Shown here: positions 24,330 to 43,170 of the stretch, piece by piece
Numbering within the stretch: position 1 is the first letter of the stretch
Layout of the letters: each line of letters begins with the position of its first letter
DNA from: an uncultured Anaerolineales bacterium
GTDB taxonomy: Bacteria; Chloroflexota; Anaerolineae; Anaerolineales; UBA11858
Assembly (NCBI GenBank): GCA_964344175.1
Contig: CAYFMI010000010.1
Coordinates: forward strand, 243 to 64,242
Length of the DNA stretch: 64,000 nt
Direction of reading: 5' to 3'
Notes under the pieces: model-generated
Database searches by the model: none
Seen by the model: only the letters and a program-made list of their open reading frames with translations
Told to the model about the DNA's origin: nothing
Made by a program: the position numbers and the translations under genes

Positions 24330-24335
24330 CAATTT

Positions 24336-26853: not shown

Positions 26854-26961
26854 ATGTCCACAATTGTATTAGGAACACTCTTGTTAGTACGGATTATCTT
26901 TCCCCTGGTGCTTTGTTTATTGCTGGGGACGCTGGTTAATCGCTATCAGTACCAATTCTGA
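26854..26961 (+). CDS. possible 35-aa hydrophobic peptide (MSTIVLGTLLLVRIIFPLVLCLLLGTLVNRYQYQF)
   Basis: It is an ATG ORF that I translated by hand; it is shorter than any ORF listed in the track. A purine-rich GAGAGAGAAAGGCAGG lies upstream. It sits immediately before the next small membrane ORF. Confidence 0.25.
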   Translation: MSTIVLGTLLLVRIIFPLVLCLLLGTLVNRYQYQF

Positions 26962-26975
26962 AAGCGAGGACTGTA

Positions 26976-27326: not shown

Positions 27327-27341
27327 AGAGGACGATTAACA

Positions 27342-28274
27342 ATGAAAAAAACTGTTCTATTTCGATGGATAGTTGCCGTATTATTTGCGGTTCCTTTTGT
27401 GTTTGTAGCCGTTGCTGGTGTGCAAGCAAGCACACTTCTCGATGAAACTCCGGTTGATCCGGGTTGTCAAGAATGCCATCCGGCTATTCATGGTGCCTGG
27501 AAAAATAGTCACCACGGTCAGGCGATGACAGATCCAAATTTTGCTGCTGCCTGGGAAGAACAAGGCCAACCCAACGAATGTCTTCCCTGCCACACAACCG
27601 GGTATGATCCCATAACGCGAACTTGGGAGTCAGATGGCATTACCTGTGAAGCATGCCATGCCCCTATGCCGTCCAACCACCCAGATCAGCCGATGCCAAC
27701 TGATCGATCGGCCAGCCTGTGTGGAGGCTGCCACCAAGAAACAGTCTTGGAATGGAAAGTCAGCCACCACCATCAAGCGGAACTAACCTGTGTGGATTGC
27801 CACGGGCAACACTCAACTTCCCTGAAGGGGCAGGATGCCCAAGCGCTGTGCTCAAGCTGCCATCAAGAGCGTGTTTTAGATTACACCCACTCAGCGCACA
27901 GTATGGAAGGTCTCTTGTGTGCCGATTGTCACCTGGGTTCTACCGGTGAAGTCGCTGGTGAAGGGCATGCCTTGAAAGATCACAGCTTCCATGTGAATCT
28001 ATCAACCTGCACGGATTGCCACGCCGATGAAATGCACGACCCCGTAGGAGCAGTAGCTTCGGTTTCCAATGATGATAATAGCTCATCAGGGCCGAAGCTA
28101 GATGCCATGGCTGCAGTTACCGATTTGGGTGTGAGCGCGGTGCCCGATCCGATCAGCCCGATATACTATGCATTGATTGCAGGGTTGATTGGCATGGCAT
28201 TTGGTTTGTTGGTTGCTCCCTGGGTAGAGCGCTGGTATCGCAGCCTCGATCAGCGCACCCGTGTAGATGAATAG
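27342..28274 (+). CDS. octaheme c-type cytochrome with signal peptide and C-terminal TM anchor
   Basis: The 8 CxxCH motifs are CQECH, CLPCH, CEACH, CGGCH, CVDCH, CSSCH, CADCH and CTDCH. The C-terminal helix is IYYALIAGLIGMAFGLLVAPW. Confidence 0.8.
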   Translation: MKKTVLFRWIVAVLFAVPFVFVAVAGVQASTLLDETPVDPGCQECHPAIHGAWKNSHHGQAMTDPNFAAAWEEQGQPNECLPCHTTGYDPITRTWESDGITCEACHAPMPSNHPDQPMPTDRSASLCGGCHQETVLEWKVSHHHQAELTCVDCHGQHSTSLKGQDAQALCSSCHQERVLDYTHSAHSMEGLLCADCHLGSTGEVAGEGHALKDHSFHVNLSTCTDCHADEMHDPVGAVASVSNDDNSSSGPKLDAMAAVTDLGVSAVPDPISPIYYALIAGLIGMAFGLLVAPWVERWYRSLDQRTRVDE

Positions 28275-28292
28275 GGGAGAGCGAGGTGCATT

Positions 28293-29066
28293 ATGACAAA
28301 GAAAAATGAGAGCTTGAATCGACGTGACTTCATCAAAATTATGGTGGGCGGCGGTGCTACCGTTGCCAGCCTGAAAGCTGCTAAATCCGTTTCGGCTTCA
28401 CATCCCGACGGCAGCAGCCCGCATCGTTGGGCTATGGTGATCGACCAGGGCAAATGCGAAGGTTGTGGTTTTTGCACCCTGGCTTGCCAGGCGCACAATG
28501 ATATCGCACCAGATATTTCTTGGAACCGGGTGATTGAGTCGTCTGAAGTCGATGGCAAAAAATGTTACCTTGCCCGCCCTTGTATGCAGTGTGAACATGC
28601 CCCATGTGTGGATGTGTGTCCGGTGGGCGCCAGTTATTATCGGGCGGATGGGATTGTAATGATGGATTACGACCTTTGTATTGGTTGCCGCTATTGTGAG
28701 GTGGCCTGCCCCTATAATGCCCGATCCTTCAATTGGCAAGCCTTCACTGGTGAAAACCCGGCGGTTCCAGATTGGGGTGAACCCGAAGTGGAGCGTCGTC
28801 CGCGCGGTGTCGTAGAAAAATGCTCATTTTGCTATCACCGCATTGACCGCGGCCTGGCCCTGGGGCTGACCCCCGGTGTGGATCCAGATGCCACCCCAGC
28901 CTGTGTTGTCGCTTGCCCTGTTGGGGCCAGAGTGTTTGGTGATCTCAATGATCCAGACTCTGAGGTGAGTCAAATTGTGAAGAACCGCGTCACCCATCGT
29001 CTGCGTGAAGATCTTGGAACCGGGCCGCGGGTGTACTACATTTGCCCCGAGAGCCAGGAGGCATGA
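28293..29066 (+). CDS. Tat-exported 4Fe-4S ferredoxin-type subunit (NrfC/PsrB/DsrO/HmcB-like)
   Basis: The Tat motif is NRRDFIK. There are four Cys clusters: CEGCGFC..C, CMQCEHAPC..C, CIGCRYC..C and CSFC...CVVAC. Confidence 0.8.
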   Translation: MTKKNESLNRRDFIKIMVGGGATVASLKAAKSVSASHPDGSSPHRWAMVIDQGKCEGCGFCTLACQAHNDIAPDISWNRVIESSEVDGKKCYLARPCMQCEHAPCVDVCPVGASYYRADGIVMMDYDLCIGCRYCEVACPYNARSFNWQAFTGENPAVPDWGEPEVERRPRGVVEKCSFCYHRIDRGLALGLTPGVDPDATPACVVACPVGARVFGDLNDPDSEVSQIVKNRVTHRLREDLGTGPRVYYICPESQEA

Positions 29067-29067
29067 T

Positions 29068-30321
29068 ATGAATATCAAACGCTTGCTTCGCAACCTAACT
29101 AAATTCCACTACTGGCTGGTCGGGCTGACGATAGTAATGGTGGCCGGGGTGATCGGCGCTCTGATTGTCTTTGTAAAGGGGTTAGTCGTCACCAACTTGA
29201 CCGACCTGGTTCCCTGGGGCCTATGGATCACAATTGACCTGTCCTCGATTGCCTTGAGCGCAGGGGCATTTACCTTGTGTGCAGCGGTCTATCTGATTGG
29301 CCTGAAAGAGTATCAACCGGTAGCGAAGACAGCCACTTTTATTGGCATTATCGGCTATAGCATGGCCATGCTGTGCTTGCTGCTAGATATTGGCCGTCCC
29401 GACCGCTTCTGGCATGCCTTTGTGTTTTGGAACGTACACTCAGTGCTGTGGGAAGTGACCATGTGCGTTGGGTTGTACTTCACCGTGCTGACCTTAGAAA
29501 CCCTGCCGATCATTGGCGAAGCCGAGTGGTTCCGCTCGCGTTGGCCGAAACCAGCCAAGTGGATGACGAAGATTCACCATTATGCGCCTTATCTGGCGAT
29601 TGCTGGTTTGTGTCTTTCGATGCTGCATCAATCATCGTTGGGCGCTACCTATGGTGTGTTGAAAGCACGCCCGCTGTGGTATTCCCCCAGCTTGTCGGTG
29701 CTGTTCATGTATTCGGCTATTGTCGGCGGTATTTCGTTGACTATTCTAAGTTCGATGATTGCGGCCCGCCTGAGTGATAAAGCGAATGTGATCGATTCAC
29801 TTTTAGAGAAGTTAGCGCATTTCGTTGGTTGGGCCTTGGTGGGCTATCTTTATTTCCGATTTTGGTATGCCTTCTCGATGACCTATACCTATGAGCCTGG
29901 ACGCACCGAGGGGTTGAGACTGCTCACGAAGGGGCCGCTGGCTTTCAACTTCTGGCTGGGTGAGATCATTCTAGGGGCGGTTGTTCCCATTGTGATCTTA
30001 CTTAAGAAAGATTGGCGGGCGCGCCCCTGGTTGCGCATGGTGGCTTTAGGGCTTGTCGTGGGTGGCTTAGTTGCCTATCGTTGGGATACGAACCTTTCAG
30101 GGCAATTGGTGATCTTAACCTACCTCCACAACGAAATCAGCACTTTATATACCAGCTATGTGCCCTCGTTGATTGAAATTGTTGTTGGGGGAGGGGTTGT
30201 AGCCTTTGGGTTGATGGCGTTCACTTTGGGGGTGCAATTCCTCAAGGTAGTAGACCACTCTTCGGAAGAAGAACCCGCGCTGGGGTCAGCAGTGGAGGCT
30301 ATCCCTCTTTCCGGAGATTAG
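29068..30321 (+). CDS. NrfD/PsrC/DsrP-family polytopic quinone-interacting membrane subunit
   Basis: The product has about 10 TM helices. ATG 29068 follows an AGGAGG RBS and the upstream TGA at 29064. Its position after an NrfC-like gene fits the family. Confidence 0.7.
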   Translation: MNIKRLLRNLTKFHYWLVGLTIVMVAGVIGALIVFVKGLVVTNLTDLVPWGLWITIDLSSIALSAGAFTLCAAVYLIGLKEYQPVAKTATFIGIIGYSMAMLCLLLDIGRPDRFWHAFVFWNVHSVLWEVTMCVGLYFTVLTLETLPIIGEAEWFRSRWPKPAKWMTKIHHYAPYLAIAGLCLSMLHQSSLGATYGVLKARPLWYSPSLSVLFMYSAIVGGISLTILSSMIAARLSDKANVIDSLLEKLAHFVGWALVGYLYFRFWYAFSMTYTYEPGRTEGLRLLTKGPLAFNFWLGEIILGAVVPIVILLKKDWRARPWLRMVALGLVVGGLVAYRWDTNLSGQLVILTYLHNEISTLYTSYVPSLIEIVVGGGVVAFGLMAFTLGVQFLKVVDHSSEEEPALGSAVEAIPLSGD

Positions 30322-30380
30322 CTCACAAAAATCGTTTCTCCTCTTCAAGCGATGTGTGATGAGACATCGCACTCTCCAAA

Positions 30381-30413
30381 AAGCCCCCGATCTTAATCAA
30401 GGATCGGGGGCTT
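30381..30413. terminator. bidirectional terminator between convergent operons
   Basis: AAGCCCCCGATC, a 9-nt loop, GATCGGGGGCTT. Confidence 0.7.
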
Positions 30414-30438
30414 GAACATTCCTTAGGGAGTGCGGCGG

Positions 30439-32142
30439 CTATTCGCTCTTTTCGGGTGCTCCTAATTGGATCCACTCAAAAACTCGCGTCAGTTCATCGT
30501 TGTTAAACTGCCCAAAATGGGGTTGCTCGCCGGTTTGTTTCGTGATGAGCAGGCTGTTCTCCGGATCTCCAGGAATCACCGCCGGGCCGCCATCACCCCC
30601 CGCCATTGTGGCCTCATAGGATGTCAGACTGAGGCCTTCCACACCATCTTCTCCGTGGCATGTCCCACAACGTAATTCGAGCAGGGGGGCAATTGTGTCT
30701 TCGTAGGTGAGGGGGCCTCCCGTTGGAAGTTCGGGTTCAGGTGGGGGCGGGGGCATCTGTTCCAGAAGAATTGCGCGCAGTTTGGGCGCGTTGAACCCGG
30801 CATATTCCCAAACGTTGCCATGACAGGCGCTGTTCGAGCAGAAGGATGTATTACTCACGCCGCCCGGATCCTCGGTGGTGTGGCAGTTTTGGCAGGTGTA
30901 GTCGAATACGTCGCGGTGCAGGCTGATCCAATTGGCGTTGAGGTGGGTTTCAGGTTCCGGGCCGCGGCTGATCTCGATGTTCGCAACAAAATCTGAAGCG
31001 CTGCTAACAATTGGAATTGAGTGACAAATATTGCATTCCAGTCGAATGGCTTCTTCTTGTTCGTTTAGATGTTTGCCATCATGACAGCGAAAACAGCCTG
31101 GCGAGTATTCATGACCAATATTGTTGGGGTGGGAATTCCAATCGGCTTTTTGTTCGGGATATACGCTCTGGGCATAGGCATCTTGCAGCGCTGTAATGGC
31201 ATTCTCAACCAGCAGGGCATTCTCTGCATAGAAATCGGGGAGGTATGTCTCGTAATAATCGGTCAGACCCGCAATTGCAGCAAGCCCGATTTCTTTGGTT
31301 TGGTAATCACGGTAAAGGATTTCGATGGCTAAACGGCGAATCTCAGGAATGGAAGTCGAAACCACGCCGCGTTCCATGAGTTGATCGAGAATATCTTCGG
31401 GGTGGTAAACAAGGTGTGAAATGCGGTTATGGCAAGTGATGCAATCCATCTCCTGAAGGTCTTCTTCATTGATGGTGGATGAGTCTATTTCGGCTTCGAC
31501 GTCCAAATATTCCGTAATTGTGCCATCCTCGGCGACGATTTGAATATAGGGAATTACTTGCCCGGCATCATCCGTTGGTAAATAATACACCGGATTTTCA
31601 ATATGCCAATGGATGCCCTGTCCTAAGCCTAGTCGCTTTGACCCGCCGCCGGTTTTCATAATCAGGTATGTAGATACTGCTGTGTTGTCAAAATCACTCT
31701 GGAATTGCCTGATTTCGCGCAAGCTGTCGTCGGAGAATTTTTCGGGGAAATGGCACAGTTCACAGGTATCACGCGATGGCCGCAACTCGTGTGCTTCAAT
31801 GGGGTACTCGTAATCTTTAAAGAGTAAAGAAATGATATGCTTGGCGTCTCCGGCTTTGCGGGTAATTCGAGTAGCAATAAAACCGCGCCCAATATGGCAA
31901 TCCACACAATCAACACGGGCATGAGGGGAAGTAAGGTAGGATGTGTATTCCGGTGGCATGGTGTGACACGCCGTGCCACAGAATTCGGGAGAATTGGTAT
32001 ATTCCCAAGCATACGCCCCGGAGATCAGAACAATTAATGTCAAGCCTCCTAATACAGCATAGGGCAAGATCCTCTGCCATCGGGGTGTACCTTCAGGGGG
32101 AAAGAAGAATTGTTTAAGCCAATTTGCGAAGCGTTTGCCCAT
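30439..32142 (-). CDS. membrane-anchored NapC/NirT/NrfH-like multiheme cytochrome with extra heme domains (9 motifs)
   Basis: It has an N-terminal TM helix. The heme motifs are CGTACH (CX3CH), CVDCH, CELCH, CITCH, CFRCH, CNICH, CQNCH, CSNSACH (CX4CH) and CGTCH. The last motif lies in a class-I-like C-terminal domain. Confidence 0.7.
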   Translation of the reverse strand: MGKRFANWLKQFFFPPEGTPRWQRILPYAVLGGLTLIVLISGAYAWEYTNSPEFCGTACHTMPPEYTSYLTSPHARVDCVDCHIGRGFIATRITRKAGDAKHIISLLFKDYEYPIEAHELRPSRDTCELCHFPEKFSDDSLREIRQFQSDFDNTAVSTYLIMKTGGGSKRLGLGQGIHWHIENPVYYLPTDDAGQVIPYIQIVAEDGTITEYLDVEAEIDSSTINEEDLQEMDCITCHNRISHLVYHPEDILDQLMERGVVSTSIPEIRRLAIEILYRDYQTKEIGLAAIAGLTDYYETYLPDFYAENALLVENAITALQDAYAQSVYPEQKADWNSHPNNIGHEYSPGCFRCHDGKHLNEQEEAIRLECNICHSIPIVSSASDFVANIEISRGPEPETHLNANWISLHRDVFDYTCQNCHTTEDPGGVSNTSFCSNSACHGNVWEYAGFNAPKLRAILLEQMPPPPPEPELPTGGPLTYEDTIAPLLELRCGTCHGEDGVEGLSLTSYEATMAGGDGGPAVIPGDPENSLLITKQTGEQPHFGQFNNDELTRVFEWIQLGAPEKSE

Positions 32143-32238
32143 TGCGAGATGCTCCTCTTTGTTTACTGGTAAAAAGAGTCGATTAATATGTAATTTATAC
32201 CATGACTATCGGATGACAATCGTCGCAAAATAGAGAAT

Positions 32239-32294
32239 AAACATCTTAAAAAATCGAGCGGCATAATTATGCCGCTCGATTTTTTAAGATGTTT
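32239..32294. terminator. 56-bp perfect palindrome (26-bp arms) downstream of the cytochrome b/c gene
   Basis: AAACATCTTAAAAAATCGAGCGGCAT-AATT-ATGCCGCTCGATTTTTTAAGATGTTT, verified base by base. Confidence 0.6.
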
Positions 32295-32321
32295 AGCTGG
32301 TTATCGGTTTGCTTGGAGAAA

Positions 32322-33479
32322 TTATTCTTCCGGCGCGCCTGCTAAAATCCATTCGATGATGAAATCTAACTCTTCTTCCGAGAATTGACCAGGGTGACTG
32401 CCGGCCACCTGTACACTCACTAATCGACTGGCGTTAGGGTCTTCCGGAATAATCGCCTCGCCGGAAACCCCACCTTCCATGGCGCTCTCGTATGAACTCA
32501 GGTCGAGACCTCCCATTGCGGCTGCACCGTGGCAGGATGCGCATTTATCATCAATGATAGATGCGATACTTTCAGCCCACGATAAGCCGGAAATCGGTGC
32601 TGGAGTGGGGGTTGGCATCGGGGTCGGTAATGGCGTCGGTGTGTATGGAGAGAATACGACCACCGACTCGGCAGGGGGAACCGTTTCTAAGGCGGTTTCT
32701 TCACCATTTACGAAGAAGAAAACCCCGGCAAGCATAACCACGGCAGCGACCCCATAAACGGGGAAGAATATCTTCTTCCGTTTAGCTATTGCTTTGGGGT
32801 CTTGAGGAATTTCGGCAATGCCGGCTTTGATATCGGCAAGTTCTAGAGGATGCTCTTCGAGCATTTCGTGTTCAGATATATAGCCGGTGAACATGCTCTT
32901 GTTCAAATGTTTTATGTGGACATTATAGAAGTGCCAGATGATGATCGCCAGAACGGCCAACAAAGCTTCACCGCTGTGCGCGGCCTTTGCCGCTGGGATT
33001 GCCATTCCGGGGAGGAAACGCGCTGTGGAAATTGGATTCCAAAGCATAAACCCGGTAATGCCCATCACAAGGGTGCCCCAGACAAAAGCCCAGTATTCAA
33101 ATTTCTCGTCAAAGGTGAAACGTCCTTGTTGGGGTTTTTCTTCTTGGAAACCTAAGTTATGCATGAAGATGCCCCAGGCAGCTGTGACATCCTGGATGGT
33201 GGGAAGCATAGTAATGCGAGATCGTTTGACGTAATATTTATACCCTGCAGCGCCAAGATGGTAAATTGTGCCCAGCATAAGACCTACCGAAGCAACCCGA
33301 TGGATGATGCGCACAGATTCAATTCCACCTAACCCGGCGATGATCGAAATCGATATTTCAGCTCCAGAATATTTTTGAATCAAGCCGGTGAGTCCCAGTA
33401 ATCCAAAGCTAATCACTTGAATCCAGTGCTCGATGCGATCTGAGATTGAAAAACGGAGGTATCTACGTTCTTTACTCAT
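32322..33479 (-). CDS. cytochrome b (FdnI/PhsC-like) membrane protein fused to a C-terminal monoheme cytochrome c domain
   Basis: The N-terminal motif is RFSISDRIEHWIQVISFGLLGLTG, followed by 4-5 TM helices with conserved His. A Pro/Thr linker leads to CASCH in a domain homologous to the C-terminus of 30439..32142. Confidence 0.7.
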   Translation of the reverse strand: MSKERRYLRFSISDRIEHWIQVISFGLLGLTGLIQKYSGAEISISIIAGLGGIESVRIIHRVASVGLMLGTIYHLGAAGYKYYVKRSRITMLPTIQDVTAAWGIFMHNLGFQEEKPQQGRFTFDEKFEYWAFVWGTLVMGITGFMLWNPISTARFLPGMAIPAAKAAHSGEALLAVLAIIIWHFYNVHIKHLNKSMFTGYISEHEMLEEHPLELADIKAGIAEIPQDPKAIAKRKKIFFPVYGVAAVVMLAGVFFFVNGEETALETVPPAESVVVFSPYTPTPLPTPMPTPTPAPISGLSWAESIASIIDDKCASCHGAAAMGGLDLSSYESAMEGGVSGEAIIPEDPNASRLVSVQVAGSHPGQFSEEELDFIIEWILAGAPEE

Positions 33480-34588
33480 TTTCGCCCCCCTATCTTATCT
33501 GAGATTTTCTTTTTAATATCGGCGCCGATAAACACGAGCATGCCTCCAATCGTCACAGGGATAATGATCTTGTAAAAAAGATCAATAAAGAACACCAAGG
33601 GAGCCTCTGTTGGGCTTGGTTCATAGTGCCCTAGCCACGACGTCGGGAAGTTTGTTGTGGCATTGGGGTGGCATTTTTGACAAGTGGTTAACAAATTCTT
33701 CTTGATGACATAGCTTTCTGGGTCATCCACTTTACGCATGTCATGCACGCCATGACAATCGATGCAGACAGGCTTGTTGGTCTCTTGGTCGGGCGTCAAT
33801 TTCTCGAAGAGGACAACCGTTGTGCCGTGGAAATCGGAAACGTAGGTATCGAAAACATGGGTGCTGATATCGTACCGTGCCATGAGTTCAGGATCGGCGT
33901 GGCAGTCGGCGCAAATTTGGGGCGAGAATAAATGAAAAGACTCGCTCGTAGATGGCCCTTGGAGACTGTGGACACCGTGGCAGTCTGTGCAGGTGGGGAC
34001 ATCGGGGTTCCCTTCACCAATTAACGCGGAGCCATGTACACTGCTGGCATACGAGCGGTAAATTGTTGAGTGGCAGCGTTCACACATTTTCGGGATATTG
34101 CTGCGAGGTGGCTCTGGCTCACTGATATTATGTGTCCCATGACAGTCGGTGCAAACTGCAGCTTCGGGGTTGCCAGCCTCAAGAGCTTGTTGGTGTGTGC
34201 TGTCGTGGGTGTCCTCATAATTACTTTGATGGCATTGCTCACAGAGGGTGTACATGGCCAATGTATATTCACGCACGGTTGTCGCAGGTATCTCGCGATG
34301 TGGATATTCTCGAATGTCGGTGTGACACTGGACACAGGCATAACCGTTCCGACCATGTACAGAAGTTGCATGTGTCACACTATCAACAGCGATATAGAGA
34401 ACTTCGCCGGATTCTAGGGTGGTGCGCAACCCTGGTGTATCATGGCAGGAAAGGCAATATTCGTCTTCTACGCCGGGGAGATTTTCCTCTGCCTGGGCAT
34501 AACTGGGCGGAACGAATAATATTCCGAGTAGAGATAGTACCCCTATGAGTGGTAGTATTTTATGTTTTGCTTTCAAAGCATCCTCCAA
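33476..34588 (-). CDS. nonaheme c-type cytochrome with signal peptide and C-terminal TM anchor
   Basis: There are 9 CxxCH motifs. An ATGA overlap couples it to the downstream cytochrome b gene. Confidence 0.8.
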   Translation of the reverse strand: MEDALKAKHKILPLIGVLSLLGILFVPPSYAQAEENLPGVEDEYCLSCHDTPGLRTTLESGEVLYIAVDSVTHATSVHGRNGYACVQCHTDIREYPHREIPATTVREYTLAMYTLCEQCHQSNYEDTHDSTHQQALEAGNPEAAVCTDCHGTHNISEPEPPRSNIPKMCERCHSTIYRSYASSVHGSALIGEGNPDVPTCTDCHGVHSLQGPSTSESFHLFSPQICADCHADPELMARYDISTHVFDTYVSDFHGTTVVLFEKLTPDQETNKPVCIDCHGVHDMRKVDDPESYVIKKNLLTTCQKCHPNATTNFPTSWLGHYEPSPTEAPLVFFIDLFYKIIIPVTIGGMLVFIGADIKKKISDKIGGRK

Positions 34589-34800
34589 AGAGAATGTACA
34601 CTACCCAACATTAACGCGCTCACAGCGATTTGTTGGGCTAATGAAAAGTGACATAACGATTGATGATAATTGCACGAAGTATAGCACAGGCATAACTTAT
34701 AAATCAGGGTAAAACGTCGGTGATATGGGGGGAAATTATCAACATTTGTGATAGTTATCTCAAAGTATTTGTGATGTTAGTAACAAATTGTGGGTAAAAA

Positions 34801-34831
34801 ACGCGGGCCGGGATCACTTCCCGGCCCGCGT
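34801..34831 (-). terminator. rho-independent terminator after the collagen-like cytochrome gene
   Basis: ACGCGGGCCGGGA, a 5-nt loop, TCCCGGCCCGCGT. A T-tract follows on the minus strand. Confidence 0.7.
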
Positions 34832-34853
34832 TGGAGCCTAAGCAGATATTCGA

Positions 34854-36122
34854 TTAGGGGGCGTCAGGGCGATCGTGATAGCCGTACGCTTTATCGATGA
34901 GTTCCTCATCGGTTTTCACGGAGGCCGATCCACCTTCAACATGACAACTGCGGCAGGCAAAGTCAAGTCCTAGTTGTGATAAAGCTTCCGAACCGTCTTC
35001 TGTGAACTGCCCAATTTGCGTGGGATCAATCGCCATCAGGTGTGTGCGGATGTCGCCGGTGAACATTTCGGCATTGCCAACTGCACTCTTGGTGACGCGG
35101 GGCATATGGCAGTCGATACATTCAGCCACTGCCGGGTGAACCTGAGAATCCTCGTAAGCGGTTTCTTGGAAATGGCAATTTTCGCAAGCTGTGCGGGTGG
35201 TAGGGGTACCTTCCTCAGCTTTGCGCAATTGCACAACCCCAGTATGAGGGTCGTGGCAGGTCACACAGTCGATGGTGATGTGCTTGCTCTGGAAGAGTTC
35301 TTCGTACTGTTCGTGGTGCTTGATGAAACCGCCGCTAGCATTAACGGCTTCAGGTGCTCCCCGTAAGTGGCATTCACCACACTGCGCAGAATCACGCACG
35401 ATTTCCAGACCGACACCATATGGATCTTGAACGTGCAAGCTGCCGGGGCCGTGGCATTCTTCACATTGGATGCCACCTTCAGACCAAGTCCCGATTAAAC
35501 CTGGAAGGTCATCCTGATTGCCCGTGGGTCTATATCCTGTAGTGTGGCATGAGCCGCAGTCGTAGGGCGTCTCTTCGCCAGGATGGTACCCGACCCAGCC
35601 AGCTTCGTTGCCAACAATAGGGTTAGCGAAGTTGTACTGGCTGACGTATTCGGTGTTTCCATCGCCGCGTGTGCCGGGTAGGCCGGTGATTATATAGCCT
35701 TCTTTGTCCACAAAACGGGCTTTCCAGTTATAACCGCCGATGACATAGAGAATGTCGTCCCAAGTGTATCCCTCAGGAACTTCGAGTACCTCGGTGAAGG
35801 GGTAAGCGGGAGGTTGACCATCCACAACAGGATTGAGCTTGTAGGGGTGGCCAGACATCATAAAGACATCGTAGATTTCCTCATGACATCCTGCGCAAGT
35901 GGCTGATTTTACATATTCAGCACCAGCTGCCGAACCGGTTTCTCCGGCGGGACCTTCAGGCCCTTCGGGGCCTTCAGGGCCTGGGGGGCCTTGTGGCCCT
36001 TCGGGGCCGGCTGGCCCAGCGGGACCTGGGGGGCCTTCAGGCCCTTGTGGCCCGGCGCATGCTGACAGCACCAGACTGGCAATCAGTAGGATGCCGAGGG
36101 CGAAAATTTGTTTTTTTTGCAT
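34854..36122 (-). CDS. lipoprotein octaheme c-type cytochrome with N-terminal collagen-like (GXY)14 stalk
   Basis: The lipobox is LVLSAC. It is followed by [42 protein letters not shown]. There are 8 CxxCH motifs, including the [11 protein letters not shown] type. Confidence 0.8.
35928..36053 (-). repeat. collagen-like Gly-X-Y triplet repeat coding region (14 triplets)
   Basis: It was read directly from the translation. The GC-rich GGNCCN periodicity also creates a mirror ORF on the plus strand. Confidence 0.85.
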
Positions 36123-36305
36123 CAGTCATTCTCCTTAGTACAATACTCATTTTTGGGCTATGAACATATTCCATGCAATATTCTTGGGCCGTGTGCACCT
36201 CCTGAAAGAATCGGGTACAATTTATTTTTAAAATAAATGGGTCAAAACTCCCAATTAAGATGTTTCTTGAGTAATAAGACCCAATTATTTGTTCAAAAAA
36301 GCACT

Positions 36306-36331
36306 TATATTGGGTATTTTAACCCAATATA
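36306..36331. promoter_or_regulatory. palindrome TATATTGGGT-N6-ACCCAATATA in the divergent region between the collagen-like cytochrome and two-component system copy 2
   Basis: A perfect 10-6-10 inverted repeat. Additional CCCAAT half-sites lie just upstream (about 36250-36285). Confidence 0.4.
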
Positions 36332-36412
36332 AATCTGGATGTCAAGTAAGCTATTCACACATGTGACAATCATCATTGTTTTCCCGTGAGGGTTGTTCGC
36401 GGAGTTGATCGA

Positions 36413-37942
36413 ATGCTCGACGTAGGATTTCAGCCAAACATTATCCTGGTATATTTTTTTTACGGCTTAGCCTTCTTCAGTATGGGGTTAGCCATTACGT
36501 TTGAGTTTGGCCGTGCGCCGTTGCTGGCGGAAGCGCGTGTGTTACGGCCTCTGGCAGTTTTTGGCCTGCTGCATGGTATCCATGAGTGGTTGGAAATTTT
36601 CATCATTCTTCCCCAATGGTTTGAGGTTACTCTACCCGTTTATTGGGATTGGACACGGCTTTGGTTATTGGCAATCTCCTTTGCTTCCCTGGTGGCCTAT
36701 GGTATTCAAGTTTTGCGCCCACCCAATCGGTTAGCTGCAATGGATGCCTGGATTGGAGCAGGGCTGTTGACGCTGTATGCTGCATTGATTGTATTGACCG
36801 GTGCAACCGTGTGGGGGAATTTCCCGGTTTGGATTGGACGGGCAGATGTCCTGGCACGTTATGTATTGGCAGTGCCAGGGGCTTTCTTGGCAGCGGCTGC
36901 TTTGTTCTTGCAGGCCTATCAGGCTCATTCCAGCCAGCGAGTTATCTTATCGAATAATTTACGTTGGGCTGCAATCGGGTTTTCTTTATACGCAATTACC
37001 CAAATTTTCGTCCCAGCCTTTGATTTTTTCCCGGCCAATTTTATAAATGCAGGCTCATTCGCCGCAGTGACTGGGATTCCAATACAACTTGTCAGAGCGG
37101 TGTTGGCCTTCATTATCACATCGAGTCTCATTCGGGCAACGCAAACCGTAGAAAGTGAGCGCCAGCGTCAATTAGAAGCTGCAAAGGAAGAGCGTTTGGA
37201 AGCGCTGGAAAGAGTGCAGGAAGAATTGGTCAAGCGCGAAGATTTGCGTCGAAAGCTATTGCGGCATACGGTCATGGCCCAAGAAGAAGAACGTTCTCGT
37301 ATTGCTCGAGAACTTCATGATGAACTGGCTCAAATCCTCACCGGCTTTACTCTTGAATTGGCTACTCTCAAGAGTCTTAGTTCGGACAATATCGGATGCC
37401 AGGATGTCGTTGAACGGCTTCAAGACTTATGTCAGCAAATGTCGAATGGGATATATACCCTGGTTCATGATCTACGTCCTGCCCAACTGGATGATCTTGG
37501 TTTGGTTCCGGCGGTACAGCACTTGATTGATGACGCGCAACGCCACATGAAACTGGCAGTCCAGTTAGAAGTGCTGGGAGGAAAACAGCGCCTCGATCAT
37601 GTTGTGGAGACGGTGCTATTCCGGGTTATCCAAGAGGCATTGACGAACGTCGCTCGCCACGCTCATGCCAATGCGGTTGCAATTTCACTCCACTACCAGC
37701 CTGCTCAGACAGTTTTGGTGGTGAGTGATGATGGTGTTGGTTTTCGACCGAAGATCCTGGCGAATCCACAAACTGGTTTTGGGATTGCAGGTATGCGCGA
37801 ACGCGTGCGATCTGTTGGGGGGGGATTTCAACTGGATTCTGCACCCGGTCAGGGCACACGTATTCAGGTGGAAATTCCACTTGAGGCTGATATAGTGAAT
37901 GAGGAGAATGCCTATGAAAGCGATTCGTCTTTTGCTGGTTGA
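36413..37942 (+). CDS. sensor histidine kinase, HisKA_3 type with polytopic membrane sensor domain, copy 2
   Basis: The N-terminal signatures are FFYGLAFFSMGL and HGIHEWLEIF. The H-box is ERSRIARELHDELAQ. ATG 36413 is preferred over GTG 36386. Confidence 0.8.
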   Translation: MLDVGFQPNIILVYFFYGLAFFSMGLAITFEFGRAPLLAEARVLRPLAVFGLLHGIHEWLEIFIILPQWFEVTLPVYWDWTRLWLLAISFASLVAYGIQVLRPPNRLAAMDAWIGAGLLTLYAALIVLTGATVWGNFPVWIGRADVLARYVLAVPGAFLAAAALFLQAYQAHSSQRVILSNNLRWAAIGFSLYAITQIFVPAFDFFPANFINAGSFAAVTGIPIQLVRAVLAFIITSSLIRATQTVESERQRQLEAAKEERLEALERVQEELVKREDLRRKLLRHTVMAQEEERSRIARELHDELAQILTGFTLELATLKSLSSDNIGCQDVVERLQDLCQQMSNGIYTLVHDLRPAQLDDLGLVPAVQHLIDDAQRHMKLAVQLEVLGGKQRLDHVVETVLFRVIQEALTNVARHAHANAVAISLHYQPAQTVLVVSDDGVGFRPKILANPQTGFGIAGMRERVRSVGGGFQLDSAPGQGTRIQVEIPLEADIVNEENAYESDSSFAG

Positions 37943-38606
37943 CGATCATGATGTTGTACGGACAGGACTTAGTTCTTTCTTTAAAACCCATGATGGTATT
38001 GAAGTTGTGGGTGAGGCAAGAAATGGCTACGAAGCAATCGTACAGGCAAAAGCTCTCCAGCCCGACGTAATCGTTATGGACATTACCATGCCAGAAATGG
38101 ATGGTCTGACAGCAACTCGAAAACTGGTTGAGCAATCTCAAGATTTTGCTGTGTTGGCTCTGACCGTGCATGAAGATAAGCAGTATTTCTTCGAAATGAT
38201 GGCAGCCGGAGCTGCCGGTTACATCACCAAGCAAGCAGCGGCTGAAGAGTTGGTGGCCGCTATTCGTGCCATTCATGCAGGCAATATTTATTTACAACCT
38301 TCACTGGCGCGCTGGTTGTTAGAAGATTATAAGCGCCTTATTGAGCATGCCCCCCGCCGTCCAGATGATGAGTCTGTTGAAAGCGATGGGGGAATTCACC
38401 CAGATTTGAATGTTCTTAGTGAACGCGAACAGCAAGTTCTTGAAATGGTAGCCGATGGCTTGACCACGCCCAAAATCGCCGAACAGTTAGAAATAAGTCC
38501 GAAAACCGTTTCTCGTCATCGTGAGCGCATCATGAATAAATTAAATTTGCATTCGTCAACAGAATTAGTAAAATTTGCTATCCGTACCGGCTTAATTGAT
38601 ATATAG
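37914..38606 (+). CDS. NarL/FixJ (LuxR)-family response regulator, copy 2
   Basis: Receiver motifs LLVDDHDVVRTG and VIVMDITMPEMDG are followed by the HTH LSEREQQVLEMVADGLTTPKIAEQLEISPKTVSRHRERIMNKL. Confidence 0.85.
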   Translation: MKAIRLLLVDDHDVVRTGLSSFFKTHDGIEVVGEARNGYEAIVQAKALQPDVIVMDITMPEMDGLTATRKLVEQSQDFAVLALTVHEDKQYFFEMMAAGAAGYITKQAAAEELVAAIRAIHAGNIYLQPSLARWLLEDYKRLIEHAPRRPDDESVESDGGIHPDLNVLSEREQQVLEMVADGLTTPKIAEQLEISPKTVSRHRERIMNKLNLHSSTELVKFAIRTGLIDI

Positions 38607-38976
38607 TCTTCAGAGCGAGGCAGCCAGAGATCACCCATCCCCGAAGACCCTTTGGATGTTTGAAGAAGCTAGGTACGCGTATAGATGATAATGCCAGGGC
38701 TTGAATCCTGGGATGAAATTTGTGATAGGGGAATCAAAAAGATCTATCAAATTGGATATAGATAGTCCGTAAAATTTTGGTACAATAGTCTGATATAACA
38801 TAGAGAGTGCACATGTCCTATGGTTGTGTTGGTGATGCCAGGCAGGGATCAACCTGGGTTTGCTGTTCTCACACAATAACGAGATTAGGCGTTATGCGCT
38901 GACGATGGTGAAAGCCCTGTTTTCGGAGAAATTTTCGTAAAGCTTATAGTTGTAAATTCCATTGGAGGTAATTACC

Positions 38977-39642
38977 GTGGAACCATTTGATAAAGATGCC
39001 ATTTCAGTTGATGTTGGTGTGCGGTTGCGTGATCTGAGAGAAGAGCGAAATCTATCGATGCGCGCGCTGGCACGTATGAGCGGGCTTTCTGCTAATGCCC
39101 TCAGTATGATTGAGCGCGGTAAATCCTCCCCTTCGGTGAGTACACTGTATAAACTTGCAGAAGCGATGGAGGTGCCAATCACCTGCTTCTTCAGAACAGA
39201 AACTCCCCAGAACGATATTGTCTTCCGGAAAGCGAATTCGCGCACTCGTATTCCTTTTCATCGCGGCTTATGGGAGGGGTTGGGGGGTGAGAATTTCGCG
39301 GGTCATGTCGAACCCTTTATGTTGACTCTGGAAAGCGGCGCGAACAGTGGTCGTTTCCCGATGATCCATTCGGGGCATGAATTTGTGATGTGTTTGCGTG
39401 GTCAGCTTGAATATCAGGTGGAGAATCAATATTTTCTCCTCGAGCCGGGTGACACCTTATTGTTCGCAGCAGAATTGAAACATCAGTGGCGCAACCCTGG
39501 GCAAACGGTCGCCAACGCTGTATTTGTCTTAGCGGGTTTCAAAGAGGGAGAAAGCCCCAGTGAATTTCATATTGTTTCTGGGTTATCAGATACAGATGGT
39601 GCGGTCATTGTCGATACAGATGACCTCATCGGCGAGGTTTGA
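38977..39642 (+). CDS. XRE-family HTH regulator with C-terminal cupin domain
   Basis: The HTH is RLRDLREERNLSMRALARMSGLSANALSMIERGKSSPSVSTLYKLA. Cupin-like motifs HSGHEFVMCLRG and GDTLLF follow. A GGAGG RBS lies 8 nt before GTG 38977. Confidence 0.75.
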   Translation: MEPFDKDAISVDVGVRLRDLREERNLSMRALARMSGLSANALSMIERGKSSPSVSTLYKLAEAMEVPITCFFRTETPQNDIVFRKANSRTRIPFHRGLWEGLGGENFAGHVEPFMLTLESGANSGRFPMIHSGHEFVMCLRGQLEYQVENQYFLLEPGDTLLFAAELKHQWRNPGQTVANAVFVLAGFKEGESPSEFHIVSGLSDTDGAVIVDTDDLIGEV

Positions 39643-39670
39643 TCCCTAATCAAAAGTAATTCACAATGAA

Positions 39671-39711
39671 ACAGGCCCGATGGTATATCACCGGGCCCGT
39701 TATTTTGTTTT
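39671..39711. terminator. terminator hairpin between convergent genes
   Basis: An imperfect stem, ACAGGCCCG...CGGGCCCGT, is followed by TATTTTGTTTT. Confidence 0.55.
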
Positions 39712-39720
39712 GCGTAGGGT

Positions 39721-40224
39721 TTAGATAAATACGATCTGAGCGCCCTCGGTCATATCCATGAAGTCGCCTGCAGTGACAATCCCCTGAACGCCATCCACAA
39801 AATCGTCCATGCTCTGGCCGAACATATCCACAGACATCTTGCAGGCGTAGAGATTAGCGCCTCCGTCGACAAGCATTTCCAGGTATTCATCCACCGGGGG
39901 AGCCTGCACTTCGGCAATTTTCTTCTTCATGAACCAAGAAGTGAAGGCAGTCATGCCGGGCAAGATACTGAGAATATTAGGGATACCCAAATTGCCGGTA
40001 GGCAATCCCATCAAGCTCATTTTCATGCTGGTCTTTGTGATGGGGGAAAGCTCAAGGCGTTTTTGGCGCTTTTTGTTGATGATGTCCATGCCCCAAAACG
40101 TAAAGAAAATGGTGACATCGATGCCATTGCCAAGCGCTGCCCATCCCATTACCAAAGCCGGGTAGGCCATGTCCAAATCGCCTTTGGAGCAGATAAACGC
40201 AATGTGTCGGTTTTCATTTGTCAT
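39721..40224 (-). CDS. DsrE/DsrF/DrsH-like family protein
   Basis: The N-terminus IAFICSKGDLDMAYPALVMGWAALGNGIDVTIFFTFWGMDII matches the DsrE-2-type family pattern. Confidence 0.65.
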   Translation of the reverse strand: MTNENRHIAFICSKGDLDMAYPALVMGWAALGNGIDVTIFFTFWGMDIINKKRQKRLELSPITKTSMKMSLMGLPTGNLGIPNILSILPGMTAFTSWFMKKKIAEVQAPPVDEYLEMLVDGGANLYACKMSVDMFGQSMDDFVDGVQGIVTAGDFMDMTEGAQIVFI

Positions 40225-40263
40225 GATTAATCCTTTTTTAGGTTTCTAATCGAAAGCCAGCGA

Positions 40264-40569
40264 CTAAACACAGCCTTCGGGTTTACCGAGACCAGAAATC
40301 TTGGCGACTTTCTTGGCTGGTCCTTTGGGGTAGAGTGCAAAAAGCGCTTTGGTGGAAATGCCCGTGCCCTTAGTGATTTGACGCAGCGTTGGCGCGGCGC
40401 CGGTGCTTTCAGCATTATCGCGGCAGAATTCAATGACAGTCCAGTGATCGGGCGTTAATTCGGCAATTCCTTCTCCCTGGGCAATTTCTGCAGCAATTTC
40501 TTTGCTCCACTGACTCGGATCGGTCATGAAGCCTTCCTCATTGAAATTGACAGTATCTAATATAGACAT
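40264..40569 (-). CDS. TusE/DsrC/DsvC-family sulfur relay protein (single C-terminal Cys, TusE-type)
   Basis: The 101-aa product contains FNEEGFMTDPSQW...LTPDHWTVIEF. Its C-terminal arm is KISGLGKPEGCV. The second Cys found 10 residues upstream in bona fide DsrC is absent. Confidence 0.75.
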   Translation of the reverse strand: MSILDTVNFNEEGFMTDPSQWSKEIAAEIAQGEGIAELTPDHWTVIEFCRDNAESTGAAPTLRQITKGTGISTKALFALYPKGPAKKVAKISGLGKPEGCV

Positions 40570-40596
40570 GGGTTTACTCCTTCTGAAAGATGTGAA

Positions 40597-41277
40597 TTAG
40601 TTTTGCGTTGCAGATTGCTCATCCAACGCTTTGAGTAGATTGATAAGCCGGGCCATCCCGCGGCGAACTTTGGGGTTTCCAAGTTCCCGCAATAAAGCCC
40701 AGGTTGAGACTTTCTCAGATTCGGGCATTTCTTCTTGAATTGCGCCCACTGCGTTATTGGCAATTGCCATAATCTCAGGTTGTGTCATGCTGCGAACGGT
40801 GTTCAGGATGATGACGATATTGTCACCCAGGGCGCGGACATCATCTTCACTGAATTCGGTGGTGATGCGTTCGACAATTCGCCAGCCTTCACGGGCAAAA
40901 TCGAAATACCCTTCACGTTCGAATTGATCTAATTGCTCAACGGCCACATTGAAGACTTGCTTGCCGAGTAATTCAACTTCATCAGTGATCCCCATCAAAG
41001 CCTCAACGCGATCCATCAATGCCAGCCACAAATGGGTGTTACGGATTACTCTTTTGAGTAGGAAGAAGAGATCTTCAACGGCAAATTCGGTGCCAATCTC
41101 TGCGAGTTCGTCGATGGTCAGTTTGATCATATGATTGACCATCGGGATGACATCATTTTTCAATTCTTCAAATTCTTGCAGTCGCCTTTGCTGAACCTCG
41201 GCATGTGAAGTCAGTGCGGCTACCTGCTCGGTGAGAGCGTCAACTTTTTGGTGGAGGAGGGCTAGATCATCTGCCAT
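40597..41277 (-). CDS. DUF1641-like protein (coiled-coil N-terminus)
   Basis: The C-terminal region TWALLRELGNPKVRRGMARLINLLKAL resembles DUF1641. It lies directly downstream of an SQR-like flavoprotein. ATG 41277 follows an AGGAG RBS. Confidence 0.5.
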   Translation of the reverse strand: MADDLALLHQKVDALTEQVAALTSHAEVQQRRLQEFEELKNDVIPMVNHMIKLTIDELAEIGTEFAVEDLFFLLKRVIRNTHLWLALMDRVEALMGITDEVELLGKQVFNVAVEQLDQFEREGYFDFAREGWRIVERITTEFSEDDVRALGDNIVIILNTVRSMTQPEIMAIANNAVGAIQEEMPESEKVSTWALLRELGNPKVRRGMARLINLLKALDEQSATQN

Positions 41278-41288
41278 GATGCACTCCT

Positions 41289-42521
41289 TTAGGCCCACTT
41301 CCCGGCCATGGTCATCTGAGATTCGAAGGGCATTTCGCCACCCTTCAACAAGATGTTCCAATAAATCCAACGGAAGGCCATCTTGCCCCAGTGATTAGCA
41401 GCTGATTCTTTGAGCAGCGAGAAGGGCCCAAATCCGGGTAGGGGGAATTTCCCAGGCAATGGTTCGACATCATAATTGAAATCGATTAAGATGCCTTTCT
41501 CGAAACCGGATTCGATATAGCAATTGGCATGCCCGTCAAATTTGGGTAGCGGTTGAAGGCCTTCCATGTGGCGAAGCATATTTTCGATGAGCACATCGAG
41601 CATAAAGTGCGCTACGGACCCGGCCTTGGAGGTTGGTGCATTGCCTGCATCGCCGATCACCCAAACATTTTCCCATTTATCAGATTGCAATGTGTGCTTG
41701 TCAATGGGAACGTAATTGAGTTCATCCCCCATGCCGGAGCGATCAATCACCTCAGACCCCATGTTGGTAGGAATGGTAACTAGCAGATCGTAGTTGATTT
41801 CACGCTCATCCCAAGAGCTGATGACTTTTCGATTGTTATCAACTTCGCCGATATTGAATTCAGGCTCAAGAATGATGTTCTTCTGATCGAGCATGTCACC
41901 TAAAATGGAAGATGCGCGCGGCTTTGTGAAAGCGCCATCCAATGGGGTGGCAAAAACAATTTCGACATTGTCGCGAATGCCGCGTTCGTGGAAGAACCAA
42001 TCGGCCAGGAACAAGAATTCCAGCGGTGCAACCGGGCACTTGATGGGCATCTCGGTGATATTCAGCACCATGCGCCCGCCCTTCCAGAATTTCAAGAATC
42101 GACTCAAGGCGGTCGCGCCCTCGATGGTGTAGAAGTCGAAGCGATCCTCATGCCAGCCTTCATCGACCATGCCTTCAGTTTCTTCGGGGTGGATTTGGGT
42201 CCCCGTGGAGATCACCAAGTAATCGTAGTTGATCACTCGGCCCTCTTTGATCAGCTTGACCCGATTTTTGTCGGGTTCGATGATTTCTACATCCGACAAT
42301 ATGAACTCGACATTATGTGGGATGAAATCTCGTTTAGGCTTAACCACATCTCCGGGGCTGTAGATGCCAAATGGAATGAAGAGGAACCCTGGTTGATAGT
42401 AGTGGGTTTCGTACTTATCAACGATGATGATACGCCATTCCGCAGGATCGAGTTCATGAGCCATTTTATTGGCAACCATTGTGCCACCAGTCCCAGCTCC
42501 GAGGATTAGTAGAGTTTTCAT
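41289..42521 (-). CDS. NAD(P)/FAD-dependent oxidoreductase, sulfide:quinone oxidoreductase-like
   Basis: The N-terminal Rossmann motif is LLILGAGTGGTMVA, followed by HYYQPGF and PIKCPVAPLE motifs. ATG 42521 has an AGGAGA RBS. Confidence 0.65.
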   Translation of the reverse strand: MKTLLILGAGTGGTMVANKMAHELDPAEWRIIIVDKYETHYYQPGFLFIPFGIYSPGDVVKPKRDFIPHNVEFILSDVEIIEPDKNRVKLIKEGRVINYDYLVISTGTQIHPEETEGMVDEGWHEDRFDFYTIEGATALSRFLKFWKGGRMVLNITEMPIKCPVAPLEFLFLADWFFHERGIRDNVEIVFATPLDGAFTKPRASSILGDMLDQKNIILEPEFNIGEVDNNRKVISSWDEREINYDLLVTIPTNMGSEVIDRSGMGDELNYVPIDKHTLQSDKWENVWVIGDAGNAPTSKAGSVAHFMLDVLIENMLRHMEGLQPLPKFDGHANCYIESGFEKGILIDFNYDVEPLPGKFPLPGFGPFSLLKESAANHWGKMAFRWIYWNILLKGGEMPFESQMTMAGKWA

Positions 42522-42552
42522 AGAAGTTTCTCCTGTATGTGTAAGAATGTAG

Positions 42553-42936
42553 TTATGCAGATAATTCTTGTTGGACGGTATCGGCAAGTTCGCTTTGATC
42601 GTGCAAGCGGCTTGCCAGCACAGCCCGGAGTAGATCTAATGCTTCGATGATGCGCGGGTCGGAAAGCGAATAATAAACCGATTGGCCATCGCGATTTGCG
42701 TTGACCATTTGGCGTTCTCGCAGAACTTTCAAGTGCCTCGAAACCGTAGGCTGGGGGAGTTCGATTGTCTCTGCGAGCTCACTGACATTGTGGGGGCGAT
42801 CATGCAATGTATAAAGGATCAGTATGCGAGTGGAATCTGCCAACCCGCTACAGATTTGAGCGTGTAATTTATTGATCTCTGCCCGGAGTTCTTTCATGGT
42901 GGGGTCACTTTTCCCAATGGTTGATTCTATAAACAT
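42553..42936 (-). CDS. ArsR/SmtB-family transcriptional regulator, copy 2
   Basis: The HTH is LADSTRILILYTL...VSELAETIELPQPTVSRHLKVLRERQMV. There is a single Cys at the same position as in copy 1. ATG 42897 is an alternative start. Confidence 0.8.
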   Translation of the reverse strand: MFIESTIGKSDPTMKELRAEINKLHAQICSGLADSTRILILYTLHDRPHNVSELAETIELPQPTVSRHLKVLRERQMVNANRDGQSVYYSLSDPRIIEALDLLRAVLASRLHDQSELADTVQQELSA

Positions 42937-42994
42937 ATACGCTTATACGAATAGATGTACGGGTGAAATATAGCATTAGGGAACACGAATTGAT

Positions 42995-43010
42995 AGTGAT
43001 TTGTGTCACA
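42995..43010 (-). promoter_or_regulatory. CRP/FNR-type palindrome TGTGA-N6-TCACT upstream of arsR copy 2
   Basis: The plus strand reads AGTGAtttgtgTCACA. The flanks TGAT...(A)GGGGGG are shared with the site at 16603. Confidence 0.45.
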
Positions 43011-43170
43011 AGGGGGGAGGATGGATGTAATGTGATAGGGGTGGGGTACATTATGTTCCCCGGATGGAATAAACAACAGCCCCCATATTTGGGGGCTGTT
43101 GGCGAACCAGGAAGGTCTGGTAACGCACTATGGGGTACGCCGAATGGCGCAGGTTGCAGGTAGCCTGGGG

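Follow-up and report, generated by a model that had tools for sequence, protein, structure and literature searches.

A conserved collagen-like stalk between the lipid anchor and the haem domain of a predicted octahaem cytochrome from Anaerolineales

The 64,000-nucleotide window described here (the whole stretch of DNA analysed; contig CAYFMI010000010.1 of assembly GCA_964344175.1, from an uncultured Anaerolineales bacterium of the Chloroflexota) encodes on its reverse strand a 422-residue octahaem c-type cytochrome with a collagen-like Gly-X-Y segment, referred to below as the stalk, placed between a lipobox and the haem domain. The stalk is conserved among the orthologs, is coupled to the lipid anchor, is kept strictly periodic by selection and, among the lipoproteins sampled, is found on cytochromes only. 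Hundreds of relatives and a second cytochrome family share this layout. Its most likely interpretation is a triple-helical spacer that keeps three octahaem heads together at a defined distance from the cytoplasmic membrane, to which we assign a probability of about 0.5; for the triple helix itself the chances are roughly even.

The signal peptide of the protein consists of a positive n-region with Lys3 and Lys4, a hydrophobic core and the lipobox Leu19-Ser20-Ala21-Cys22, the sequence of which agrees with the lipobox pattern [LVI][ASTVI][GAS]C. Judging from this motif, the cytochrome is probably an exported lipoprotein lipidated at Cys22. A sole residue, Ala23, separates the lipobox cysteine from the first glycine of the stalk (Gly24). 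The stalk comprises 42 residues, of which 39% are prolines, 5–6 are acidic and none is basic, and the octahaem domain begins within a few residues of its end. The haem-binding motifs of this domain are, in order, CAGCH, CGSCH, CEECH, CGECH, CVTCH, CENCH, CIDCH and CRSCH (n=8). The earlier note on this DNA had described a lipobox protein with 14 uninterrupted Gly-X-Y triplets after the lipobox cysteine and an eight-haem domain next to them; translation of the open reading frame (ORF) and its eight CXXCH motifs bear out this architecture, and the coordinates given there (Table 1) are exact, with only Ala23 omitted.

The collagen character of the stalk can be recognised in several ways. The Pfam Collagen model (PF01391) matches it with 28.0 bits at a gathering cut-off of 27.2, the margin being slight; many orthologs already bear PF01391 in their precomputed annotation, and among the PDB sequences the stalk matches collagen peptides and BclA. 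A six-frame scan of the 64 kb revealed three runs of at least five triplets, namely the stalk, its 12-triplet antisense shadow and one chance run of five triplets. Besides the stalk, no run of at least five triplets lies within a plausible gene anywhere in the window, and the run of 14 triplets far exceeds the chance expectation. The antisense shadow belongs to an ORF of 79 amino acids on the forward strand (35899..36138), where the reverse complement of the stalk reads as a (GPS/GPA)n "collagen". The same artefact is seen in dozens of related loci, and gene callers could annotate a spurious collagen-like gene there.

In close orthologs the X position of the triplets is occupied by Pro in 71% of cases and the Y position by Ala, Glu, Gln or Pro. 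The DNA of the stalk shows periods of 9, 18 and 36 bp according to Tandem Repeats Finder, with degenerate repeats (70–79% matches). The stalk of this gene alone employs all four glycine codons. Over 71 ortholog stalk-coding regions these codons are distributed as GGC 292, GGT 233, GGA 220 and GGG 139, with a mean of 3.4 different glycine codons per run, and 94% of the 9-mers within a run are distinct. The use of four glycine codons together with this distinctness of the 9-mers means that the glycine periodicity is maintained at the protein level through synonymous turnover. The presence of Gly at each third position thereby points to selection acting on the amino-acid sequence and not to recent repeat slippage. 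It should be added that an unbroken glycine register is required by a triple helix and is unneeded by a merely flexible linker.

The distribution of the stalk was followed in 110 close orthologs with intact N-termini. Eighty-six of them combine a lipobox with 6–21 triplets, most commonly 11–15, whereas lipobox and Gly-X-Y run are both absent from 22; the two remaining proteins have a run without a lipobox match and are probably misses of the search pattern. The association of lipobox and run is accordingly very strong (Fisher p = 4e-21). In most orthologs the run starts at position Cys+2 and fills the linker, being separated from the conserved "AEYVGS" start of the domain by a short Ala/Glu-rich tail. 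A neighbour-joining tree built on the haem domains places the stalk in the ancestor and shows at least nine losses, the lipobox disappearing each time; a single clade of stalk-less orthologs was considered and rejected on the same tree. In the stalk-less proteins a plain signal peptide is followed almost directly by the domain, with no substitute linker. The stalk-less orthologs are also without a lipobox, the repeat is not replaced by another linker, and the objection foreseen in the earlier note (a repeat missing from orthologs or exchanged for an arbitrary linker) finds no support among the close orthologs. The variation of the repeat number, which the same note proposed to look for in homologs, is indeed considerable.

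About 30 of the 150 distant representatives (40–55% identity) also carry a lipobox with a Gly-X-Y run, here of 5–41 triplets, and some of these stalks are rich in Lys-Asp-Gly. Other distant representatives have Ig-like domains or other low-complexity linkers in place of the run. Four distant homologs (P0194, P0201, P0217 and P0241) contain a (C)WDLNGNGxCD...D motif between the run and the octahaem domain, which resembles calcium-binding DxDxDG or thrombospondin-type-3-like loops. Six loci whose records carry the label Spirochaetes or Spirochaetota and one with the label Desulfarculaceae (L025, L044, L061, L068, L077, L081 and L078, the taxon being that of the record label) all code for proteins with a plain signal peptide, lacking both lipobox and stalk. 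These would be diderm carriers without anchor and stalk, provided that the binning of the records is right.

The restriction of the stalk to cytochromes follows from a scan of the window and 1.29 Mb of related loci, a sample of 128 candidate lipoproteins which is biased to cytochrome-rich neighbourhoods. A Gly-X-Y run was found in none of the 36 non-haem lipoproteins of this sample, as against 4 of 26 cytochrome lipoproteins belonging to other families (p = 0.027). A role of the stalk as general lipoprotein linker of the lineage is thus rejected within the sample. The stalk-bearing proteins of other families are a hexahaem protein (L017, L029), a protein with five haems and a cbb3-type cytochrome c domain (L026, L063) and a truncated one (L082). 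The five-haem family of Anaerolineales (about 444 amino acids) is unrelated to the octahaem family; a search with the haem part of the L026 protein showed that all 63 full-length orthologs possess a lipobox and 8–13 triplets, mostly 9–10. The C-terminal domain of this family is shared with a TsdA-like family (about 490 amino acids, "thiosulfate dehydrogenase" in JGI annotation), which was reached through it and which always has a lipobox and a Pro/Thr/Glu-rich linker and never a Gly-X-Y run. Pro/Thr-rich linkers are also present in two proteins of the same operon as the octahaem cytochrome, the cytochrome b and the NapC-like protein, and therefore Gly-X-Y is not the default linker of this organism. 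Each family appears to keep its own type of linker, Gly-X-Y or Pro/Thr, so that Gly-X-Y does not behave in these sequences as an interchangeable low-complexity spacer.

The head is matched by the Pfam models Cytochrome_C7, c3_2, C554 and the MtrC/MtrF domains II/IV. The sequence of OcwA (PDB 6i5b) is matched with E = 2.7e-14 by residues 64–262 of the protein, which align with residues 10–203 of the OcwA chain, i.e. with its N-terminal half; a second, weak stretch of the alignment takes in the motif CIDCHMPR/CVDCHMPK. A monomer model calculated with AlphaFold2 (AF2) from a 92-sequence alignment has a mean predicted local distance difference test (pLDDT) score of 65, the N-terminal half of the head being modelled well. 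The best Foldseek matches of this model in the PDB are OcwA (1e-6), then the octahaem sulfite reductase MccA and OmhA (E = 1e-6 to 9e-5). The TM-scores of 0.25–0.41 are low because the model is devoid of haems and has an average pLDDT of 65, and the fold matches of such a model agree with membership of the superfamily and do not extend to details. OcwA, MccA and OmhA belong to "clade 3" of the NrfA/c554 superfamily (PMC9250108). As the protein has eight CXXCH motifs, and so eight haems instead of the nine of OcwA, two of which are penta-coordinated and have distal His pairs, it is called here a relative of OcwA and not an OcwA. One His-His pair of the head, His269 and His270, is invariant.

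The haem domain alone retrieves 3337 homologs at E <= 1e-5. The best 120 of them are at least 69% identical, and the named ones come from Anaerolineales or Chloroflexota metagenome-assembled genomes; in the source databases the homologs are labelled "hypothetical" or "multiheme c-type cytochrome". Carriers among 80 GTDB species loci are almost all Anaerolineae, Caldilineae or Ardenticatenales and originate from anoxic, marine or sedimentary sources (Black Sea at 150 m, Red Sea brine, sands, muds). An exhaustive search of representatives yielded 1631 clusters, among them forms in which tandem duplication has raised the number of haems to as many as 32. Such tandem octahaem duplications form giant cytochromes (P0121, P0138, P0153, P0237, P0239 and P0253), the largest being P0121 with 1398 amino acids and 32 CXXCH motifs and P0138 with 1555 amino acids; most of the giant proteins have a lipobox or a plain signal peptide and no Gly-X-Y stalk.

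In 28 of the 50 stalked loci with at least 3 kb of downstream sequence, the stalked gene is immediately followed by the genes for a nonahaem cytochrome and for a cytochrome b with a fused monohaem domain, whereas the pair follows only 1 of 12 stand-alone stalk-less copies (p = 0.003). The cytochrome b has a match to the formate dehydrogenase gamma-like NCBIfam model which stays under its cut-off, and the fusion is a putative quinol-interacting module. Together with the distant homology to OcwA, this gene context suggests that the stalked cytochrome may take part in extracellular electron transfer.

The arrangement that we consider for the spacer is the following. After Sec export, Cys22 would be lipidated and, as the new N-terminal residue, would hold the protein on the outer side of the cytoplasmic membrane, where three chains would associate through their Gly-X-Y segments to give a collagen triple helix. 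The rise of the collagen triple helix is 0.286 nm per residue. The calculated length of a triple-helical stalk would be about 12 nm in this protein, about 5–18 nm in the close orthologs and 35 nm in the longest distant relative, so that the trimeric octahaem heads would be held at a set height within or beyond the wall layers. As far as can be judged from the operon content, electrons could pass from the membrane quinol to the cytochrome b with its monohaem domain, from there to the nonahaem wire anchored in the membrane, whose length may cover the larger part of the gap, and further to the stalked octahaem head and an acceptor outside the membrane, or they could be taken up in the reverse direction. 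By analogy with MtrA, a nine-haem wire is roughly 7–8 nm long and could thus make up the greater part of the 12 nm between membrane and head. Chloroflexota envelopes are multilayered and devoid of the outer-membrane markers BAM and lipopolysaccharide, and filaments have an outer layer in common (PMC13319060, PMC7332563). In such an envelope it is plausible that the head needs to stand at a defined distance from the membrane. The spacer role proposed in the earlier note fits this kind of envelope as well as the operon, and the stalk might cross the wall or a sheath.

Several observations do not favour a trimeric spacer. Neither a coiled coil nor a recognisable trimerisation or nucleation domain flanks the repeat according to sequence and Pfam. 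For a triple helix that has to form unassisted and without hydroxyproline, the stalk is short, and the stalks of only 6–8 triplets present in some orthologs would hardly be stable alone. The net charge of the stalk averages about -3.4 per chain and Lys or Arg occurs in only 13% of the runs, leaving to all appearances almost no basic residues for stabilising ion pairs. Tethering at both ends and cold habitats would probably help short stalks to remain folded. The confidence of the AF2 monomer is low in residues 24–68 (pLDDT about 40–60) and in the C-terminal half of the head. Furthermore, 22 of the 50 stalked copies have no nonahaem and cytochrome b partners nearby, and 22 close orthologs exist with neither anchor nor stalk. 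MccA is a trimer. OcwA was described as a mixture of monomers and dimers with a weak interface (PMC6703420), and the superfamily therefore offers no clear prior on the oligomeric state.

Three other explanations of the stalk were considered. The main rival is a monomeric leash, i.e. an extended, flexible, polyproline-II-like chain without a triple helix, whose single head would swing between the nonahaem donor and distal acceptors. The shortness of the stalk (14 triplets here and down to 6 in orthologs), its acidity without stabilising Lys or Arg, the lack of a trimerisation domain adjoining the repeat, the fact that OcwA is not a trimer and the low AF2 confidence, with no defined structure in residues 24–68, all agree with a leash, which also accounts for the position of the stalk and its variable length; moreover, cytochrome lipoproteins of the same lineage place plainly flexible Pro/Thr linkers at the same position. 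However, a leash needs no Gly at each third residue, and the register is unbroken over 6–21 triplets in 86 orthologs and up to 41 distantly, through synonymous codon turnover. Nor does it explain why the families never mix Gly-X-Y and Pro/Thr linkers, or why Lys-Asp-Gly patterns, which are typical of triple-helix-forming bacterial collagens, appear in distant stalks. A leash is a serious possibility, on balance somewhat improbable.

It is also possible, and unlikely in our opinion, that the stalk is chiefly a binding or assembly module which attaches the protein to a wall polymer, a sheath or a mineral, or bundles it laterally into arrays, with height being secondary. The motif GPEGPQGP at the sixth triplet is kept in 45 of 87 runs, which hints at sequence-specific recognition; this may, however, reflect mere common descent among sequences that are at least 69% identical. 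The abundant Glu could bind cations or mineral surfaces, and weak NCBIfam matches lead to the collagen-like surface proteins, Scl1/2, Lcl and BclA being adhesins or surface-layer components. On the other hand, the segment starts two residues past the lipidated Cys and would thus lie in part at the membrane surface and not in the wall, and the conserved gene neighbourhood offers no obvious binding partner. A binding function would in any case be compatible with that of a spacer. Finally, the tract could be neutral, a low-complexity product of 9-bp repeat slippage that is passively carried, as the 9, 18 and 36-bp periodicity and the different repeat numbers of the orthologs might suggest. The repeats are, however, degenerate (70–79% matches) and diverse in 9-mers and glycine codons, on which grounds a slippage by-product was rejected; the tract has persisted from the clade's ancestor onwards and was lost only with the lipobox, it recurs in an unrelated cytochrome family within the narrow range of 8–13 triplets, and it is absent from the 36 non-haem lipoproteins of the same genomes. 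A neutral tract is thus highly improbable.

If the stalk does act as a triple-helical spacer, it may belong to something wider. Lipid-anchored, collagen-stalked multihaem cytochromes could constitute an unrecognised envelope-spanning class of Anaerolineae and related Chloroflexota, in which a true triple helix supports head trimers of at least three unrelated families about 5–18 nm above the membrane and the length of the stalk is adjusted to the layers of the envelope and to how far the nonahaem wire extends. This generalisation is put forward tentatively, as we would sooner doubt than assert it. In species that grow as filaments within a common outer layer, cytochromes standing at one height like a lawn could then also allow electrons to be exchanged laterally along the filament.

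Among the characterised cytochromes, the closest counterparts are OcwA from Thermincola potens (6i5b) and OmhA from Carboxydothermus ferrireducens (6qvm), whose haem domains are homologous to the head within the NrfA/c554/MccA superfamily. Both were proposed to be the distal element of a multihaem chain crossing an envelope without a classical outer membrane (PMC6703420, PMC7911101). The stalked cytochrome is likened to them in this respect, its own function being predicted only. It carries eight haems, in contrast to nine in OcwA and eleven in OmhA, and the identity in structural alignments is only about 19%. The PDB title of OmhA (6qvm) places the protein in the S-layer. Neither OcwA nor OmhA is reported to have a lipobox or a collagen-like segment; the words "lipoprotein" and "collagen" are absent from the OcwA paper (PMC6703420).

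As regards the stalk, Scl1 and Scl2 of streptococci, BclA of Bacillus and Lcl of Legionella likewise possess an unbroken Gly-X-Y region without hydroxyproline and of variable repeat number, which bears a globular domain away from the cell surface. These proteins, adhesins or fibres of the exosporium, have collagen regions of far greater length and heads dedicated to trimerisation, and they are anchored via LPXTG or the basal layer. In the cytochrome, by contrast, the anchor is an N-terminal lipid and the cargo is a redox protein; the LPXTG motif was not found in its 422 residues, the anchor being the N-terminal lipobox. The NCBIfam models SclA, SclB and Lcl give 22.5–26.1 bits at cut-offs of 325–500, in the Gly-X-Y region only, and membership of the Scl, Lcl or BclA-type adhesin families was rejected on these scores. 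Bucl8 of Burkholderia pseudomallei/mallei offers a precedent for a collagen-like segment on a functional envelope protein that is not an adhesin: this outer-membrane component of an efflux pump, for which a trimeric state is predicted, bears a collagen-like extension outside the cell (PMC7682875). Bucl8 differs in being a β-barrel/α-helical outer-membrane factor of a diderm, unrelated in sequence to the cytochrome; its collagen region projects outward, whereas the stalk described here joins the anchor to the functional domain.

The order of parts in the stalked cytochrome is shared with eukaryotic collagenous proteins, although this is an analogy only, the proteins being unrelated in sequence and coming from another kingdom. 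Class A scavenger receptors, MARCO, collagens XIII and XVII, C1q and adiponectin consist of an N-terminal anchor or bundle, a collagen stalk (in some cases about 14–25 triplets) and a C-terminal head. Trimerisation through the heads is established for them, and their prolines are hydroxylated. Bacterial collagen-like stalks (Scl, BclA, Lcl), the Bucl8 extension and the surface cytochromes of monoderms (OcwA, OmhA) are thus already known separately. A report joining collagen-like repeats with multihaem cytochromes was not found in the open-access full-text literature, an absence which is not proof and which agrees with the earlier note, whose author was aware of none. The combination of anchor, collagen-like stalk and multihaem cytochrome, recurring in several families of one lineage, appears to be undescribed.

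The way in which respiratory electrons cross the wall of bacteria without a classical outer membrane is poorly understood, and the handful of examples studied, Thermincola and Carboxydothermus, belong to the Firmicutes. Anoxic sediments, marine oxygen-minimum and euxinic waters, digesters and bioelectrochemical systems all harbour abundant Anaerolineae, of which almost none have been cultured. The anchor-stalk-cytochrome design offers a testable structural hypothesis for their electron-transfer machinery, and the succession of lipobox, Gly-X-Y repeats and CXXCH motifs provides a sequence signature for metagenome searches. Should the triple helix prove true, this would be the first case found of collagen serving as a molecular ruler for a redox enzyme, with relevance to bacterial-collagen biomaterials and to bioelectrochemistry.

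Table 1. Features of the stalked cytochrome gene, its neighbours in the window and a stalked family found in related loci.
Feature	Position	Strand	Details
Octahaem cytochrome ORF	34854..36122	-	ATG start; 422 aa; stop codon 34854..34856
Ribosome-binding site AAGGAG	36131..36136	-	8 nt 5' of ATG; direct sequence reading
Predicted signal peptide and lipobox, M1..C22	36057..36122	-	ORF translation; co-occurrence of lipobox with Gly-X-Y in orthologs
Collagen-like stalk, G24..A65	35928..36053	-	14 unbroken Gly-X-Y triplets; Pfam Collagen; PDB sequence matches
Octahaem c-type cytochrome domain, residues 66-422	34857..35927	-	Eight CXXCH; Pfam, PDB, Foldseek; distant OcwA kinship
Nonahaem cytochrome, N-terminal signal peptide and C-terminal transmembrane helix	33476..34588	-	ORF, Pfam, nine CXXCH
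Cytochrome b (FdnI / Ni_hydr_CYTB type)-Pro/Thr-rich linker-monohaem PSCyt1 fusion	32322..33479	-	Pfam PF01292, PF07635
Two-component system: HisKA_3 histidine kinase (multi-pass membrane N-terminus) and LuxR-type response regulator	36386..38606	+	Pfam; divergent
NapC/NrfH-like protein with C-terminal PSCyt1 domain	30439..32142		
ACIII-like module (pentahaem-type cytochrome, 4Fe-4S protein, NrfD-like membrane protein)	27342..30321		
Decahaem lipoprotein, 768 aa	21791..24097	+	Cys/Pro-rich segment CATPDALECPDCPACPDAECPEAPACPEAEPCPE directly after the lipobox
Five-haem stalked cytochrome of other family	L026:19124-20455; L063:19129		Proteins P0272-P0390 cover this family and the TsdA-like one

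The stalked gene lies within a cytochrome island (11776..44832) in which nine ORFs have 7–10 CXXCH motifs each, 75 in total. In three Anaerolineales species (L012, L013 and L014) a stalk-less paralog is located just upstream of the stalked gene, followed by the nonahaem and cytochrome b genes. Such a tandem pair suggests distinct roles in one pathway, for example those of a soluble shuttle and an anchored terminal protein.

In about 25 related loci or species the kinase gene of the divergent two-component system lies some 1.5 kb upstream on the opposite strand, where it adjoins stalked and stalk-less forms alike. A paralogous system is present in the window at 24336..26463 (+); each of the two consists of a HisKA_3 kinase and a LuxR-type regulator and adjoins a multihaem lipoprotein gene, and both kinases contain FFYGLAFFSMGL within a conserved multi-pass N-terminal membrane domain. 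The Cys-Pro tract of the decahaem lipoprotein could form disulfides, bind metal or serve as a rigid spacer, and the remainder of this protein is an internal duplication.

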